64,000 bases of DNA from a virus, in IMG/VR virus record IMGVR_UViG_3300033978_000724, positions 33,032-97,031 of that record. The stretch is one strand, 5' to 3'. How positions within the stretch are numbered: the first letter of the stretch is position 1; every line of letters begins with the position of its first letter. Below the pieces are notes generated by a model. The model saw only the letters and a program-made list of their open reading frames with translations. It was not told the origin of the DNA and ran no database searches. The position numbers were made by a program, and so were the translations under genes. Below, one piece after another: positions 18,199-61,340 of this stretch.

Positions 18199-18481
18199 TT
18201 TATTTGTCTGTAGCTACGGTCTAAGGTGGCTGATGTGGGAATACAAGTTATTCGACAATCAAAGGGCTTATCTCGCAAATCTACACCCAATCCTGAAAGA
18301 ATTAACCGGCTGTTCCTATTGCCAGATGATCGAGTGTTCTACTTTCCTTTGGGTCGTCTTTGAATTAACCAACGTTCATCACTACCCAATTCCGATTGGT
18401 TTAGGGTATGTCCTCTTTTTTGGCTGGACAGCGTGGGTAATTTCCTTGCTAGAGAATTTACTCGACCGGCCCAAAGATTAA
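18191..18481 (+). CDS. Small membrane protein, DUF1360-like
   Basis: ELTGCSYC motif flanked by hydrophobic segments. Confidence 0.55.
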   Translation: MFDLFVCSYGLRWLMWEYKLFDNQRAYLANLHPILKELTGCSYCQMIECSTFLWVVFELTNVHHYPIPIGLGYVLFFGWTAWVISLLENLLDRPKD

Positions 18482-18539
18482 ATAATTACATTAGGCCAAT
18501 AGATGATTTCTCTTTTTCTCTCTTACAGATTTGGTATAT

Positions 18540-18779
18540 ATATTATAAAGCATTTTCTGTCATCCCTAGGATTTAATACTAGAAACACTTTTAGCGATCC
18601 GGCGGGTGCGTGAATGAAGGCTATTCGCAACGAATACCGACGGCTAGGATGTACTTTTCCCGTCGGCGTTTCATTTCTTTACTTTTTAACCTGTTCTGGC
18701 TAAATACACTTTTTGTCAGCCGTCAAAGCTATGTCAGATATAGGATTATGCGATCCGCTGGTGTGGCGAATGAAATCAG
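18540..18779 (+). repeat. Dispersed ~240-bp non-coding element, copy A
   Basis: Colinear with the reverse complement of 29091-29330 (about 70% identity by hand alignment). Confidence 0.9.
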
Positions 18780-18842
18780 ACATAGGTCGGGGTGTTTTTT
18801 AAAGTTGAGATTAATTATTTAGTATTTTGGACCAAACGTTAG

Positions 18843-28556: not shown

Positions 28557-28754
28557 TTTATTTTCCTCTCCCTTAAGCCGGAGTCGCTTTTCATTTGTTT
28601 CTATATTTTTATAATACACGGTTATCTGTATTTTAACCAGATAGACCTATATAAATTATTTATACCCTTCAATGAAAATCCACTATTTCACTTATCATTT
28701 AAAACATAGATAACCGTGCTAACCTGAGAATCATATATATAAAGGATAAAAACA

Positions 28755-28985
28755 ATGGTAACTAGAAACCCCAAAGGCAGTCCCGCCACTTTGACCTCAT
28801 TCAAAGTAGAAGGACCATTAATCATCCCAGGCGACAGATTGTCTAAAAAGATGACTGCGATCCGACTCCAGCAAAAGGTAGAAGACGCTTTAAACAAAAT
28901 CCCACCCAAAGAACGGCCCGCTTTTCTCAGAAAATGTATCACCGAAGCATTAGTCACAAGTGGACTTCTTGATCTGCCTGACTAA
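28755..28985 (+). CDS. Small RHH-like DNA-binding protein
   Basis: TAIRLQQKVEDALNKIP..RPAFLRKCITEAL; AAAGGA RBS; divergent promoters share an operator-like motif. Confidence 0.65.
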   Translation: MVTRNPKGSPATLTSFKVEGPLIIPGDRLSKKMTAIRLQQKVEDALNKIPPKERPAFLRKCITEALVTSGLLDLPD

Positions 28986-29090
28986 GAATAATTACTTAAT
29001 CACCTGGACTAATTTAAAAATAATCATGGGCCGTTATGGTCCTTTTTTGTTTGCCAACCCCAAAATACCTGAGATAAATTAGTCAAAAGT

Positions 29091-29330
29091 CAATTTTCAT
29101 TCGCCTCTGTGGTGGTCTGGTGTGATTCATGCCAGGTATAGATTACACGCATGACAAAAAGTGTATTTTGCTAAAACAACTTAAAATGTAACGAAATGTA
29201 ACGCTAACGGAAAAGGTTGATCGTAGCCGTCGGTATTTGTTGCGAACGCATATCATTCACGCAGGTAGCGAATCGCTAAAAGTCTATCCTAGTATTGATT
29301 ACAGAGATGACAGAATTTGCTTTATAATAT
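29091..29330 (-). repeat. Dispersed ~240-bp non-coding element, copy B (inverted relative to A)
   Basis: Shared blocks TATTATAAAGCA, TTCTGTCATC, TTTAGCGAT, TGCGTGAATGA, TTCGCAAC, AATACCGACGGCTA, AAATACACTTTTTGTCA, GGCGAATGAAA at the same spacing. Confidence 0.9.
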
Positions 29331-29372
29331 AATAAGAACATCTGCAATGAATAAATAATCATTCCTTGGTAA

Positions 29373-29840
29373 ATGTATATCAATCTAAAAATACAAAAAG
29401 TCCACCCGCTGGCGAAGTGTCCAAAATATGCCCATGAGTTTGATGCTGGCATGGACTTGTTTTCTGTGGAAGAAAAAATATTAGGGCCGGGCGAGAGTGG
29501 ATTGATCGGGACCGGGTTAAAAATTGCTTTACCAAAATACACCGAAGCACAAATTAGACCTCGGAGCGGGTTGGCTTTAAATCATCAGATAACGGTGTTA
29601 AACAGCCCTGGGACGATTGATTCTGGTTATCGTGGGGAAATAGGCGTTATTCTGATTAATCACGGTTTAAGCCCGTTTAAAGTTGAGGTAGGGATGAAAA
29701 TAGCACAGATGGTATTGGCTTCTGTGCTAAGAGGTCGAATATTGGTTGTGAGCGAGTTGGATGATACTAGCCGGGGGAGGGTGGTTTTGGGTCTAGTGGG
29801 ATTTAGCGAAAAGAAAACCGCCAGGTTAAGGCGGCGATGA
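29373..29840 (+). CDS. dut: dUTPase (motif 5 shifted out of frame)
   Basis: AGMDL, PRSGLA, GTIDSGYRGEI, KIAQMV; RGEGGFGSSGI is recovered only with one extra G at 29773-29777. Confidence 0.92.
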   Translation: MYINLKIQKVHPLAKCPKYAHEFDAGMDLFSVEEKILGPGESGLIGTGLKIALPKYTEAQIRPRSGLALNHQITVLNSPGTIDSGYRGEIGVILINHGLSPFKVEVGMKIAQMVLASVLRGRILVVSELDDTSRGRVVLGLVGFSEKKTARLRRR

Positions 29841-57209: not shown

Positions 57210-60200
57210 CTAAGAATTATTAAATTCTTTGTATATCCGCACCATGCCATTGACAAAATTATAGGAAATGCTCCAGTAGTCTTCTGCATTAACAAACAAC
57301 AGAGACACCCCTATAAACCTCTTGGCGGTGTATTTAACCCCCTCGTAATAGATTTCAGCACCGATCCAGTTTGGCAGCGGGTAGCAAGGTTTATATTCGT
57401 CTGATAATTTATGGGTTATTTGTGTATATATTTCTGATTGATTTTGGGACGGGACTGAAGAATTAGGCGTTATGTCCACAACGGCAGTAGATGAATGATA
57501 ATTATTATGGCCATGAGGTAAATTATTATCATTATTTATTTGCTTATTATGATCTATAAAGCATTTTCTGTCATCTCTGAAACCCACCGCCTGATTATCG
57601 TTTAGCGATTCAGGTGGGTGCGTGAACGATACCTGTTCAGGCTGATTTTCACCTTGTCTAGTTTGGCTGTTTTGGCATCCGTTTATACAATTTTCTTCCC
57701 TAATATCCTGGTCCGTTTTGTGGTTTTCTGTCCATTTTTCTAGTTGAGTAGTTAGGCCATTTTTGACATATTTAAAAATGACTGCCCCAAAACCATCGGC
57801 AAATTCATCAGATAATTTAAAGTATCTCCTTTCCTCATCTTGGGATGATTCAAATGGTTTGTAACCCAATTTAGTCGCTAACCTCTTGATTAAGGTAGTA
57901 GGACTAGCACCTCGGTCAACCTTAGTTAGTAGAGCCGCTTTTTTATCCCATCGTTGCCAGAGGCTTACTATCTCTGGTGATTCGTGATGATATTCTGTTT
58001 CCTTTTCGACGTAGGAGGCAAGTAATTCAGGTATCCCCAACCGGATTAGAGTAGATACCATCGGGTGCTTATCTCTAAAATTGCCTAAGAACTTAGGTTT
58101 ATTTTTCAGGTTTAATACTTTTTCCCATCCCTTGGCACTACGTTTCTTAGCCAACTCAGGGATGCCCGTTAATGTTCTTAACTCAGCTTGTTGCAGAGAT
58201 AAGGGATGTTTGAATTTAATATGAGTAATTAAGCTGGTACTCCAGTAAATCTCTCCTGTTTCTTCATCATTACAATCAATACCAGGTAATGTTTGGATTA
58301 ATCTATATTTTTCTTTTTTGGCTCGTTCTTTTTTGTCTAAATCACTTCTTTTACATAATGATTCATAAGCCTCTTGAGTGATAGGCGGGGCTTGATAAAT
58401 AGCCTCAGATTTAGCCTCTTTTACATCTCTTTTGTCTTGTCTGTACCCTTTTACTTTCTCGTCAGGCAATTCAGCATAAACAATTTCAAAGCCAGAGTTT
58501 TGCAATACTTCTAATAAACATTCTTTTAGGTGCTGGCGTTCATAGTTTTTGATCGCCTGGTACTTCATAAATAATTTAGTTTCAGGAGAATCAAACGTCC
58601 CCTCTACTAAATGTTTTAATCGCTCCACTAAAATATCTCTTTGACCAGGTAAATCATCCTGAAATTGTTGCATCCCTAGCCTGTAAGTTTCGGCCAAATT
58701 ATTTAATAATTGGCGGTCAAAAGCACTATTAAGATTAGAGTCATAGTCCCTAGATGAAACATACTCAACAATAGCTAAATGCCTGGGACAATCAATATTT
58801 CTTGCCCGCATAATCATTTGGGATGAGTACATTGATTCTAGGTGTTTGATGAACTCGTAAACACCAGTAAACCTCTTAGAGACAGAAGATAAACCAGATT
58901 CAATACACGGACTAGAGATAATCCCGTCATAGGGAAAATCAGGAAGATCAACTACTTCAGGGTTAGATAAAAAAGCTCTGATCCATTTCAGCTGGTCAGG
59001 GTTGTCTGAATCATTAATTGTCTCAGAGTCAATCCGCAAATAATTCTTATCGTGTCGTAATCCACATTGGGCAATAGATTCACACTCATTCTGTGAATCA
59101 CTCATAATCCAAGGGAAATCCTCTTTAAAGACTTGTGCTAATAACTTTTGGGAGTGACTACCAACGCCATCATAAAAGTTAACTTTAGGTCTGGCTGGTA
59201 ATTTATTGTTATAAATCTTTGTAATACTCTTGCCACTAATCTCTTCTATGCAATCTACCGTGGCATCAGTTAAGTTAGCATCGGCGATAATAATACAATG
59301 ACATCTTTGTAATAATTCTCTCTTTAATTCGATAATATGTTGCTGACGTTCCCCTAGAGTTTCACCACCTAAAGTATGGTGCATCTCCGACTCGCACTCA
59401 TCAAGAATTAAAACCCGCCCGTCAAAATCTTTCGGCTGGAATTTATCTAATGAATCAGGACATAATACTAATCTTGATTCTAGGTCAGAAGTAAAACTAT
59501 AACCTTTCACTCCTGCCACATCTTTCAACATATAAAACCGATTCTGATTACTTAGCTCGTGTTCATCACAATAAGCATCACAATCTTTGATGAACTGTTC
59601 CCCTAAGCTATTACGACTAGGTAGGTAAATCGCACCCATCCCTTCATACTTATTCATTAATTGCCTGACAATTCCTGTGGTTTTACCTTGTCCCGTGTGG
59701 AGTTTTAAGCCAATACCTTGACCATAATCAGGGAATCCTACAGCCTTGTTTTTGTTTTTGGTATCGACAAATATATCAGGACACTTTTCTACATTAATAG
59801 AAATGTCTGGAGTATATTTTTTGTACCCCATCCACGCAGAATGAGAGTAAATAGTTTTCTTGTTTTTCCAGTCATTCGGGTCAAGATTTTGAGTATCTTG
59901 ATATGCGTCAAAATCAGCCAAGCAATCCCATGATGAATAGGCTATTACCTTGGCATCGTCAATAGATTCTATTTCGTCAATGTCTTTAAATTCCTTAGAA
60001 AAACCTTGTCCCCAATCTAACGCCATCAAGCTGTAGCCAAGGGCTTTGACTAAGTGATTAAGTTTTCTGTATTCTCTCAGAACATTAGGATTAGATTTGG
60101 TGGCAGCGTCAGGACATAAAACTATCTGACTTGGTTTGAGAATATTTACAGCGTGAATAAAAGTTTTTTTACTAGCATCAAACATCCCACCAGAAGCACC

Positions 60201-60971
60201 GATCACATTAATACCAAATCTCACTGATGCTATGAGCGATTTAAGGATAGCCTCGCTCACATAAAGTATTTGACCGGGTTCGTGGTTAACGATTGCGTGT
60301 TGCAAAGGTAGTTCATCAAATTCCTTAGTCTTAGAATTACTAGCCCATTTATATTTATTTCCTTCTTTTATGCCTAATATTCTTTTTTGGAAACCAACCA
60401 TCCGCCCGTCAGCGTCCAGAGCAGGAATAATATACCCGTCTTCACCCGCTCCACAATAAATTGACCGGCCATCATAAGTGACACCGGGCAAGTTTTTATT
60501 AACCGATTGAGAAAACCTGGTTTTATTTTGGCGGGAGTCACCAACAGACTTGAAATTAAAACCTTTAATAAACTCATCAGATAAACCACGGCCAATCAAA
60601 TCGGAGTGACTAGCATCGTCTAGGGACATCTGAGAGAATGCCTTTTTATATTCCTTGTCCCGTTGGTCAGCAGATAATATTTCTGGAGCCTTGGCTTTTG
60701 GCTCCTGTTTTTCCTGGGACGTTACTCTTTGGGTGTGGATTACCCGATCATTTTTAGAATAATTTTTGTTTTGCCAGTTCGTTTTCTCTGGCCAATACTT
60801 TTTCCATAGCCCTGATTTAGGTTTACTACTAGTTGACCAACCAGGGACATCGCCATCGGACTTCATACATAGGATTTCGTTTGAATCCTGAAACCCTCTG
60901 CATCCCCCGCTTGTATCTCCACAAACTGGACAGCCACCGTTCTTTTTGTTGAGAGGGATAAACTGTGACAT
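57210..60971 (-). CDS. Primase-helicase replication initiator (CyRepA/DUF3854-like)
   Basis: CPVC zinc finger, KYKW, VSEAILKS..LCPDA..KDIDE Toprim-like motifs, TGQGKT Walker A, ILDECE Walker B, QMIMRAR motif VI. Confidence 0.88.
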   Translation of the reverse strand: MSQFIPLNKKNGGCPVCGDTSGGCRGFQDSNEILCMKSDGDVPGWSTSSKPKSGLWKKYWPEKTNWQNKNYSKNDRVIHTQRVTSQEKQEPKAKAPEILSADQRDKEYKKAFSQMSLDDASHSDLIGRGLSDEFIKGFNFKSVGDSRQNKTRFSQSVNKNLPGVTYDGRSIYCGAGEDGYIIPALDADGRMVGFQKRILGIKEGNKYKWASNSKTKEFDELPLQHAIVNHEPGQILYVSEAILKSLIASVRFGINVIGASGGMFDASKKTFIHAVNILKPSQIVLCPDAATKSNPNVLREYRKLNHLVKALGYSLMALDWGQGFSKEFKDIDEIESIDDAKVIAYSSWDCLADFDAYQDTQNLDPNDWKNKKTIYSHSAWMGYKKYTPDISINVEKCPDIFVDTKNKNKAVGFPDYGQGIGLKLHTGQGKTTGIVRQLMNKYEGMGAIYLPSRNSLGEQFIKDCDAYCDEHELSNQNRFYMLKDVAGVKGYSFTSDLESRLVLCPDSLDKFQPKDFDGRVLILDECESEMHHTLGGETLGERQQHIIELKRELLQRCHCIIIADANLTDATVDCIEEISGKSITKIYNNKLPARPKVNFYDGVGSHSQKLLAQVFKEDFPWIMSDSQNECESIAQCGLRHDKNYLRIDSETINDSDNPDQLKWIRAFLSNPEVVDLPDFPYDGIISSPCIESGLSSVSKRFTGVYEFIKHLESMYSSQMIMRARNIDCPRHLAIVEYVSSRDYDSNLNSAFDRQLLNNLAETYRLGMQQFQDDLPGQRDILVERLKHLVEGTFDSPETKLFMKYQAIKNYERQHLKECLLEVLQNSGFEIVYAELPDEKVKGYRQDKRDVKEAKSEAIYQAPPITQEAYESLCKRSDLDKKERAKKEKYRLIQTLPGIDCNDEETGEIYWSTSLITHIKFKHPLSLQQAELRTLTGIPELAKKRSAKGWEKVLNLKNKPKFLGNFRDKHPMVSTLIRLGIPELLASYVEKETEYHHESPEIVSLWQRWDKKAALLTKVDRGASPTTLIKRLATKLGYKPFESSQDEERRYFKLSDEFADGFGAVIFKYVKNGLTTQLEKWTENHKTDQDIREENCINGCQNSQTRQGENQPEQVSFTHPPESLNDNQAVGFRDDRKCFIDHNKQINNDNNLPHGHNNYHSSTAVVDITPNSSVPSQNQSEIYTQITHKLSDEYKPCYPLPNWIGAEIYYEGVKYTAKRFIGVSLLFVNAEDYWSISYNFVNGMVRIYKEFNNS
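57551..57640 (+). repeat. Core of the dispersed element, copy C, inside rep (candidate origin)
   Basis: TATAAAGCATTTTCTGTCATCTCTG ... TTTAGCGATT-CAGGTGGG-TGCGTGAA with the same spacing as copies A and B. Confidence 0.8.
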
Positions 60972-61045
60972 TACCTCACCCCCTTATTTGCAAGGATTGG
61001 TTCGGTAGTCTTGAAAAAAATACTTTTTATTGCTATCATGTAACT

Positions 61046-61148
61046 ACAAATGAATTTTATTGATTAAGGTCGCTAACGGGTAAGCATTGTTAGGCGGCCT
61101 TAATGGTTTAAGTCTAAGTCCCGGTTTTGTACGCCTGGGGCTTTTTTT
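61046..61148 (+). ncRNA. Counter-transcribed antisense RNA to the rep leader
   Basis: TTGAAA-17-TATCAT (61011-61039), hairpin 61063-61104, terminator 61116-61148; G-U pairs favour the plus strand. Confidence 0.7.
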
Positions 61149-61340
61149 ATGACTTAAAACCTGTACCTTTTTACTATAACAAATCTCACCAAAAAAGATT
61201 AAAAAAATTAACAAAGATTTACTAGCCCCTTTTGTTAATATACTTTTTGGCCAATAAGTCTTTGTTAATTAATAATAATAAAAAGTTTATTCCTAATCCG
61301 TAAATCTATCGCAAAGGCGATTCAGATAATAACTTCAGGA

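Follow-up and report, generated by a model that had tools for sequence, protein, structure and literature searches.

A dispersed element in the genome of a lake cyanophage

The replication gene rep of a 97-kb lake cyanophage carries within its coding sequence a short copy (copy C) of a DNA element that occurs at three further loci of the same genome (copies A, B and D; Table 1). All coordinates, unless marked as genomic, are positions of the window, that is, the 64,000-nucleotide (nt) stretch that was analysed (bases 33032-97031 of IMG/VR record IMGVR_UViG_3300033978_000724, 97,031 bp, with a 127-bp overlap between its termini). The gene set is that of a tailed phage, with portal, large terminase, ThyX, dUTPase, Dam, Gp157 and an intein-bearing ribonucleotide reductase. 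The closest relatives of Rep come from filamentous cyanobacteria, and the phage was present in ~20 metagenomes (lake, pond and lagoon).

An earlier note on this DNA had placed the core of the element inside rep, and the searches bear this out. The 25-mer of the element is exact at 57555-57579 (+), and with up to three mismatches it was found in the window only at 18544 (+), 29326 (-) and 57555 (+), with none in 100 shuffles. A hidden Markov model (HMM) built from the three long copies only matched 57555-57640, that is, copy C, with E=2.2e-13; beyond the four loci, the same HMM found nothing below E=0.8 across the 97-kb genome. The element family occupies four loci, with D and A on the + strand, B on the - strand and, inside rep, the short copy C (+). 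A chance match is excluded, and copy C is a maintained cis element that shares its AT tract with the long copies.

The long copies each consist of two tandem modules, TGTCA-N49-GAATGA, which are exactly 156 nt apart in three diverged copies, and the sites span about 85 to 330 nt. Copy C is an 85-base stretch with a single module of the first type (N50), and its element sense strand is antisense to rep. It holds three blocks, with TTTAGCGATT at 57601-57610 and TGCGTGAA at 57619-57626. The spacers equal those of A and B in length, save for one extra base in the second spacer. The AT-rich run that the earlier note saw before the core reaches or exceeds the 95th genome percentile (73% AT; genome mean 61.5%), and tracts of 73-78% AT over 60 nt precede all four copies.

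Table 1. Coordinates of rep, of the parts of copy C and of the other element copies and candidate sites
Feature	Position	Strand	Description
rep	57210-60971	-	1253 amino acids (aa); zinc-finger/primase-like N-terminus; CyRepA1 domain aa 422-1038
AT-rich tract	57495-57554	+	78% AT over 60 nt; directly upstream of block 1 (element sense); codes for the Asn-rich part of the linker
Block 1, TATAAAGCAwwTTCTGTCATCyCT	57555-57579	+	Best-conserved part of the module
Spacer 1	57580-57598	+	Length equal to other copies, sequence unrelated; ungapped alignment of six copies
Block 2, CkTTTAGCGATyC	57599-57611	+	Strong matches in the four copies only
Block 3, TGCGTGAAyGA	57619-57629	+	Also in A, B and D
Possible hairpin H2, GTGAACG/5-nt loop/TGTTCAG	57622-57640	+	Followed by a U/T-rich run in copy C
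Copy A, two modules, period 156 nt	18481-18798	+	nhmmer E=2e-96; between the thyX operon and the portal-gene terminator
Copy B, two modules	29071-29382	-	nhmmer E=2e-96; flanked by a small + gene and its terminator on one side and by the dUTPase start on the other
Copy D, third long copy	genome 12715-13034	+	Outside the window; from the whole-genome search
Alternative origin/operator candidate	61191-61270		A-tract repeats and three ATTAACAAA words, one of them direct and two inverted

Copy C lies ~90% into the rep coding sequence and codes for Rep residues 1111-1139 of 1253, within an N/Q-rich linker near the C-terminus, as the earlier note had it. This linker lies behind a folded domain that ends near aa 1085 and is disordered in the AlphaFold model (predicted local distance difference test, pLDDT, <50).

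Conservation of copy C at the nucleic-acid level

Identity of copy C to copies A, B and D was 85-87% in the blocks and 33-40% in the spacers, and between A and B it was 89% and 27%, respectively. Across the paralogues, block identity thus ranged from 85 to 91% while the spacers were near saturation. Within rep, the blocks are kept by the genome's rarest codons, namely TCG twice (7%, rank 6 of 6), ACG (rank 4 of 4), CTA, TTC and CAC.

The earlier note had named conservation among rep homologues as a check, and at the protein level this was found: Rep residues 1112-1150 are identical in five variants, which include a homologue at 73% identity (P0002), except for a change of AV to VT in P0002 that falls in a spacer. 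The flanks of this stretch are mosaic. One variant (P0027) has five changes in aa 1099-1111, a patch adjoining the core; another (P0029) is the same as the phage Rep up to aa 1150 and then continues with an unrelated C-terminal domain of the P0002 type. A diverged relative, with contigs in two metagenomes, aligns over ~57582-57633, beside a replaced stretch. Blocks kept amid saturated spacers argue for continuing nucleotide selection in copy C, which, judged from these comparisons, is selectively maintained at the nucleic-acid level.

The C-terminal domain itself (57210-57520, aa 1151-1253) occurs as two unrelated allelic types with a recombination junction at ~57520, and gave no confident structure model.

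Rep as a UL9-like helicase of the CyRepA1 family

The earlier note had taken the host gene of copy C for a replicase gene. Rep scored 253.9 bits against NCBIfam NF042913 (CyRepA1; cut-off 200) over aa 422-1038, and the core lies outside this domain. A Pfam search of Rep gave no match, and its PHROG matches were to primase, replication and origin-binding families. In tblastn, plasmid CyRepA1 proteins shared 25-28% identity with Rep over aa 1-1038, the matches ending near aa 1038. The model of aa 400-1100 (57672-59774) had a pLDDT of 86, and its best four Foldseek matches were all to UL9 of herpes simplex virus 1 (HSV-1; E=2e-11, ~780 columns), followed by the next helicase at E=1.4e-7. UL9 was likewise the sole PDB match of the Rep sequence profile (E=0.002).

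Towards the C-terminus, Rep is ordered as a UL9-like helicase with a winged-helix DNA-binding domain, the disordered linker that holds the core and the swappable C-terminal domain. A winged helix makes up the domain directly in front of the linker (aa ~968-1085); its top Foldseek rows were of MarR type (E ~0.08) and its best VIA match was the C-terminal DNA-binding domain of UL9, at a modest Z of 6.0. The core lies 25 residues past this domain. As modelled, Rep is a UL9-like origin-binding helicase of superfamily 2 (SF2) and of the CyRepA1 family with a primase-like N-terminus. With a UL9-like fold and a winged helix, Rep should therefore recognise specific DNA sites. No mention of a link between UL9 and CyRepA was found in the CyRepA literature consulted, and no definition of a CyRepA1 DNA target in the literature searched.

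A candidate Rep-binding site that doubles as linker code

The reading that we prefer, held tentatively and at somewhat less than an even chance, is that copy C is a candidate cis site bound by Rep together with an unwinding tract, and acts as an origin or as a Rep-titrating site. Copy C would be one functional module of a cis element that is dispersed over the genome and composed of the AT tract and three blocks at fixed spacing; the same DNA also encodes part of the disordered linker of a CyRepA1/UL9-like primase and origin-binding helicase. The element would act as DNA, its blocks being docking sites for a sequence-specific protein; the best candidate for this binder is the winged-helix/UL9-like domain of Rep, encoded just upstream of the linker. 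The AT tract may serve as an easily melted stretch where the helicase-primase loads onto single strands, and the four loci would serve either to start replication or to titrate or pair Rep. Both the identity of the binder and the start of replication at the loci are what we infer. The fixed spacer lengths and the exact 156-nt period appear to fit phased protein contacts better than RNA. A more specific version, in which four dispersed origin modules without iterons, one of them translated as the Rep linker, are served by a primase fused to a herpes-UL9-type helicase, is doubtful.

The replicon of three origins (copy C plus A and B) that the earlier note had proposed does not stand, as the loci number four and the third long copy D lies outside the window. 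Nor could copy C be upheld as the cognate origin, as nothing favours it over the long copies or over the region upstream of rep at 61191-61270. An origin reading is plausible but unproven.

Several observations weigh against a Rep-bound origin or titration site in rep. Wobble-only changes in the pairings H2 and H3 (see below) favour one strand, pointing to single-stranded nucleic acid. TTCGCAAC, conserved in the long copies, is absent from copy C. Iterons are lacking: no 8-11-nt word occurs three times within 400 nt inside rep, no tandem repeat was found, and in the long copies only ACTTTT and GAATGA recur. Across the AT tract, no inverted repeat of at least 6 nt stands at a shared position in the four copies. 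A repeat cluster is present upstream of rep in the phage itself, and ten CyRepA1 plasmid loci show clusters of short repeats upstream or downstream of rep and no shared position within the gene. The one CyRepA1 replicon that has been studied, pSYSA, needs a cis region upstream of rep (PMC9978351). Finally, both types of C-terminal domain occur with the same core.

Should the version with four origin modules hold, a first cis site would be defined for CyRepA1, a family of initiators in phages and plasmids of cyanobacteria that drives many cyanobacterial plasmids and serves in cyanobacterial vectors. The four sites offer a concrete candidate for the CyRepA1 target, one of them within the gene and beside the predicted DNA-binding domain. 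Even as an RNA or promoter module, the element would remain a clear example of a regulatory signal that is maintained in coding sequence against codon preference.

A possible RNA element

The element may instead act as RNA, a reading that we rate as unlikely and yet place first among the rivals. A promoter in the AT tract would transcribe the module on the element-sense strand. In rep, the product would be an antisense RNA of ~80 nt with two hairpins and a U-rich end; the RNAs from A, B and D would be longer, and their blocks would base-pair with that same stretch of the rep mRNA. Such an RNA would control rep in the manner known from plasmids, or would open or prime the origin, which has been proposed for pSYSA. 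Promoter-like hexamers on the plus strand stand before block 1 at 57526-57553 (TTATCA-16-TATGAT, 9 of 12 positions), and -10-like TATTAT/TATATT is present in all copies. The element-sense strand of A and B leads into terminators with no gene behind; for copy B, this depends on the + open reading frame (ORF) 28755-28985 being a real gene. The sole CyRepA1 replicon that has been studied uses a sense/antisense RNA pair (PMC9978351).

On the element-sense strand, block 1 could pair with block 2 (H1) and block 3 with the start of the next stretch (H2). In six sequences, 98.7% of the cells of H1 and H2 are paired, with changes among U-A, U-G, C-G and G-C/G-U that work on this strand only, as the opposite strand would carry A-C mismatches there. 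H2 is paired in six of six copies via U-A, U-G and C-G changes. The 96-nt sense RNA of copy C alone folds well (z=-2.6), using its own spacers, and has a U-rich tail.

These pairings are countered by several results. The paired counts of H1 and H2 did not exceed the shuffle control, because most columns never vary, and the covariation term of RNAalifold was ~0 on both strands. Fold z-scores of the long copies were -0.75 and 0.03 (further value, -1.19), and H2 and H3 are weak in copy B. Rfam 15 gave no match at the gathering score in the window, and around copy A only chance rows (E at least 2.9). An RNA also leaves the strict lengths of the unpaired spacers and the 156-nt period unexplained, and its target, ~90% into the coding sequence, would be unlike that of known copy-control RNAs. 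Support from RNA structure is weak.

A possible promoter on the opposite strand

Slightly further down the ranking, and improbable, is a promoter with upstream regulator sites on the opposite strand. The -35 would be the ATGACA-like hexamer of block 1 and the -10 would lie in the AT tract, while an activator or repressor would bind in phase at blocks 2 and 3; copy C would be an internal promoter for the genes that it precedes on the reverse strand (a 266-aa gene, Dam and ribonucleotide reductase), and copy B the dUTPase promoter. The best promoter-like site of the region is indeed ATGACA-17-CATAAT at 57574-57546 (-), with 10 of 12 positions, and the gap between rep and the next gene is only 57 nt. 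On the reverse strand, copies A, B and D have a perfect TATAAT. In copy B, block 1 stands directly behind a terminator and at a distance of 47 nt from the dUTPase ATG that it precedes, and fixed spacing of the blocks would suit contacts between a factor and the polymerase. However, copy A faces the 3′ end of a convergent operon and serves no gene, and the gene next to copy D has a near-consensus promoter of its own, which follows the copy (sequence read by eye). The geometry also differs: in A, B and D, TATAAT and ATGACA are only 10 nt apart, while the -10 of copy C is displaced by 7 nt. The plain promoter reading is incomplete, because neither orientation suits all four copies.

A possible recombination relic

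Least probable of the named rivals, and a remote one, is that copy C is a relic or boundary homology of recombination, across which the C-terminal domain was joined to rep, and that its present value is limited to shared homology in module exchange or to the protein sequence: the domain switch of P0029 from aa 1151 beside the core, the mosaic patch of P0027 on its other side, the small gene inserted right behind copy A in a related contig and the end of the tblastn matches to plasmid CyRepA1 proteins near aa 1038 would suit it, but a relic would drift, whereas the blocks are kept, also at synonymous sites with rare codons, while the spacers are saturated. From the conserved blocks, the saturated spacers, the rare codons, the invariant residues and the mosaic flanks taken together, a pure relic is therefore unlikely. 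Explanations other than these take up the remainder of the probability.

Occurrence in other genomes and further features

Exact-pattern scans of viral contigs for the element found a single related contig (IMGVR_UViG_3300036406_001206), which has an A-like and a B-like copy and is without rep. The metagenome scan for the element gave two matches, both at chance level. No rep-related loci were found in the viral contigs or genome contigs searched, and no relatives among GenBank phages by blastn and tblastn with rep. GC skew was uninformative on origins and tracks gene direction.

Between the phage and the related contig, changes in the first module are confined to the spacers, save for two that fall in block 2 of copy B in the relative. 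In the second module (18688-18805 and 29100-29150), the spacer diverges by ~20%, as against 5-8% in the flanking genes. Right behind its copy A and before the portal terminator, the related contig has an insertion of ~620 nt (L008:576-1198) that holds a gene of ~100 aa with its own ATACAAAGGACAA leader. The ATACAAAGGACAA word recurs directly in front of many start codons, on either strand (for example, at the gene starts 22092, 30149, 37106, 46151, 48462 and 51435).

Near copy B, two overlapping ORFs on opposite strands occupy 28688-28985, with wobble positions in common. An indel of 1 nt that the relative has at 28753 speaks for the + ORF (28755-28985), behind which lies a terminator at 29028-29052. 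In the tail of copy B, 17 nt at 29055-29071 (TTTTGGGGTTGGCAAAC) recur as an exact reverse complement at genome 27280-27296, 35 kb off and outside the window.

On the reverse strand, all four copies contain a six-codon mini-ORF, ATG ACA GAA (AAT/TTT) GCT TTA plus stop, read by eye (57555-57579, 18544-18568 and 29302-29326 in the window); its stop is TAA, or TAG in rep, and it is without usable ribosome-binding spacing. Upstream of rep (60972-61340), ATTAACAAA lies at 61207 (+), 61231 (-) and 61261 (-), with an A-tract repeat at 61191-61219, around a promoter-like site TGTTATAGT.

Four further candidates fell away: conservation of a small ORF across the long copies, where the stops differ; template and variable repeats of the type of diversity-generating retroelements, as the differences extend beyond adenines; loop pairing with other phage mRNAs, for which only chance-level words were found; and invertible-segment or parS sites, whose anatomy does not match.

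Comparison with known systems

The origin of phage lambda lies inside gene O, and origins are similarly placed in P22 and TP901-1; in SPP1, oriL lies inside gene 38 and oriR elsewhere. The likeness of copy C to the lambda type is that of a cis site and an adjacent AT-rich tract within the part of the initiator's own gene that codes for the flexible linker between its domains, with allele swapping around the site, and SPP1 adds the likeness of a second related site elsewhere in the genome. The parallel to lambda O that the earlier note drew is therefore sound as to the AT tract and the position in the linker, and breaks down at the iteron array: lambda-type origins have three to five iterons, whereas the phage has one asymmetric module with three different blocks.

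Phage P4 combines its alpha primase-helicase with ori and crr, and P1 has oriR and incA. As in these, the phage would have a multifunctional initiator with a winged-helix DNA-binding domain and at least two separate clusters of sites, some of them for control and not for initiation. Their sites, however, are short repeated iterons, and the P4 helicase is of class SF3 (superfamily 3).

In pSYSA of Synechocystis 6803, the CyRepA1 protein slr7037 is accompanied by the ssr7036 mRNA and asRNA1, which form a sense/antisense RNA control, and replication is thought to be RNA-primed (PMC9978351). Rep belongs to the same family by the NCBIfam cut-off. The cis region of pSYSA differs in lying upstream of rep and not within it, with no sequence likeness to the element, and at the protein level the identity of 25-28% is confined to aa 1-1038, so that the linker and the C-terminal domain of the phage fall outside the match.

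In the HSV-1 origins to which UL9 binds, of which each genome has three, short boxes are combined with an AT-rich spacer and a strand-specific hairpin (PMC12543377). In the 3′ arm of H2, copies B (29237-29262) and D (genome 12842-12868) have GCGTTCGCAAC, which is near Box 1 of HSV-1 UL9, GTTCGCAC (PMC12543377); copy A has ATTCGCAAC instead and copy C lacks GCGTTCGCAAC, and the likeness to Box 1 may be due to chance. Like oriS and oriL, the phage element is present at several related sites per genome, with short boxes beside an AT-rich stretch. A strand-specific hairpin is possible in it as in OriS*, whose hairpin is a precedent for single-stranded structure in an origin (PMC12543377). The phage differs in having no inverted boxes that flank the AT tract, in the primase-like N-terminus of its Rep and in the length of its sites, about 85 to 330 nt. 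By analogy, the UL9 origins may be considered a fair functional counterpart of the phage element, the inverted-box layout aside, and the full-length match of CyRepA1 to the UL9 fold, a useful lead in itself, ties an initiator of bacterial plasmids and phages to that of a eukaryotic virus.

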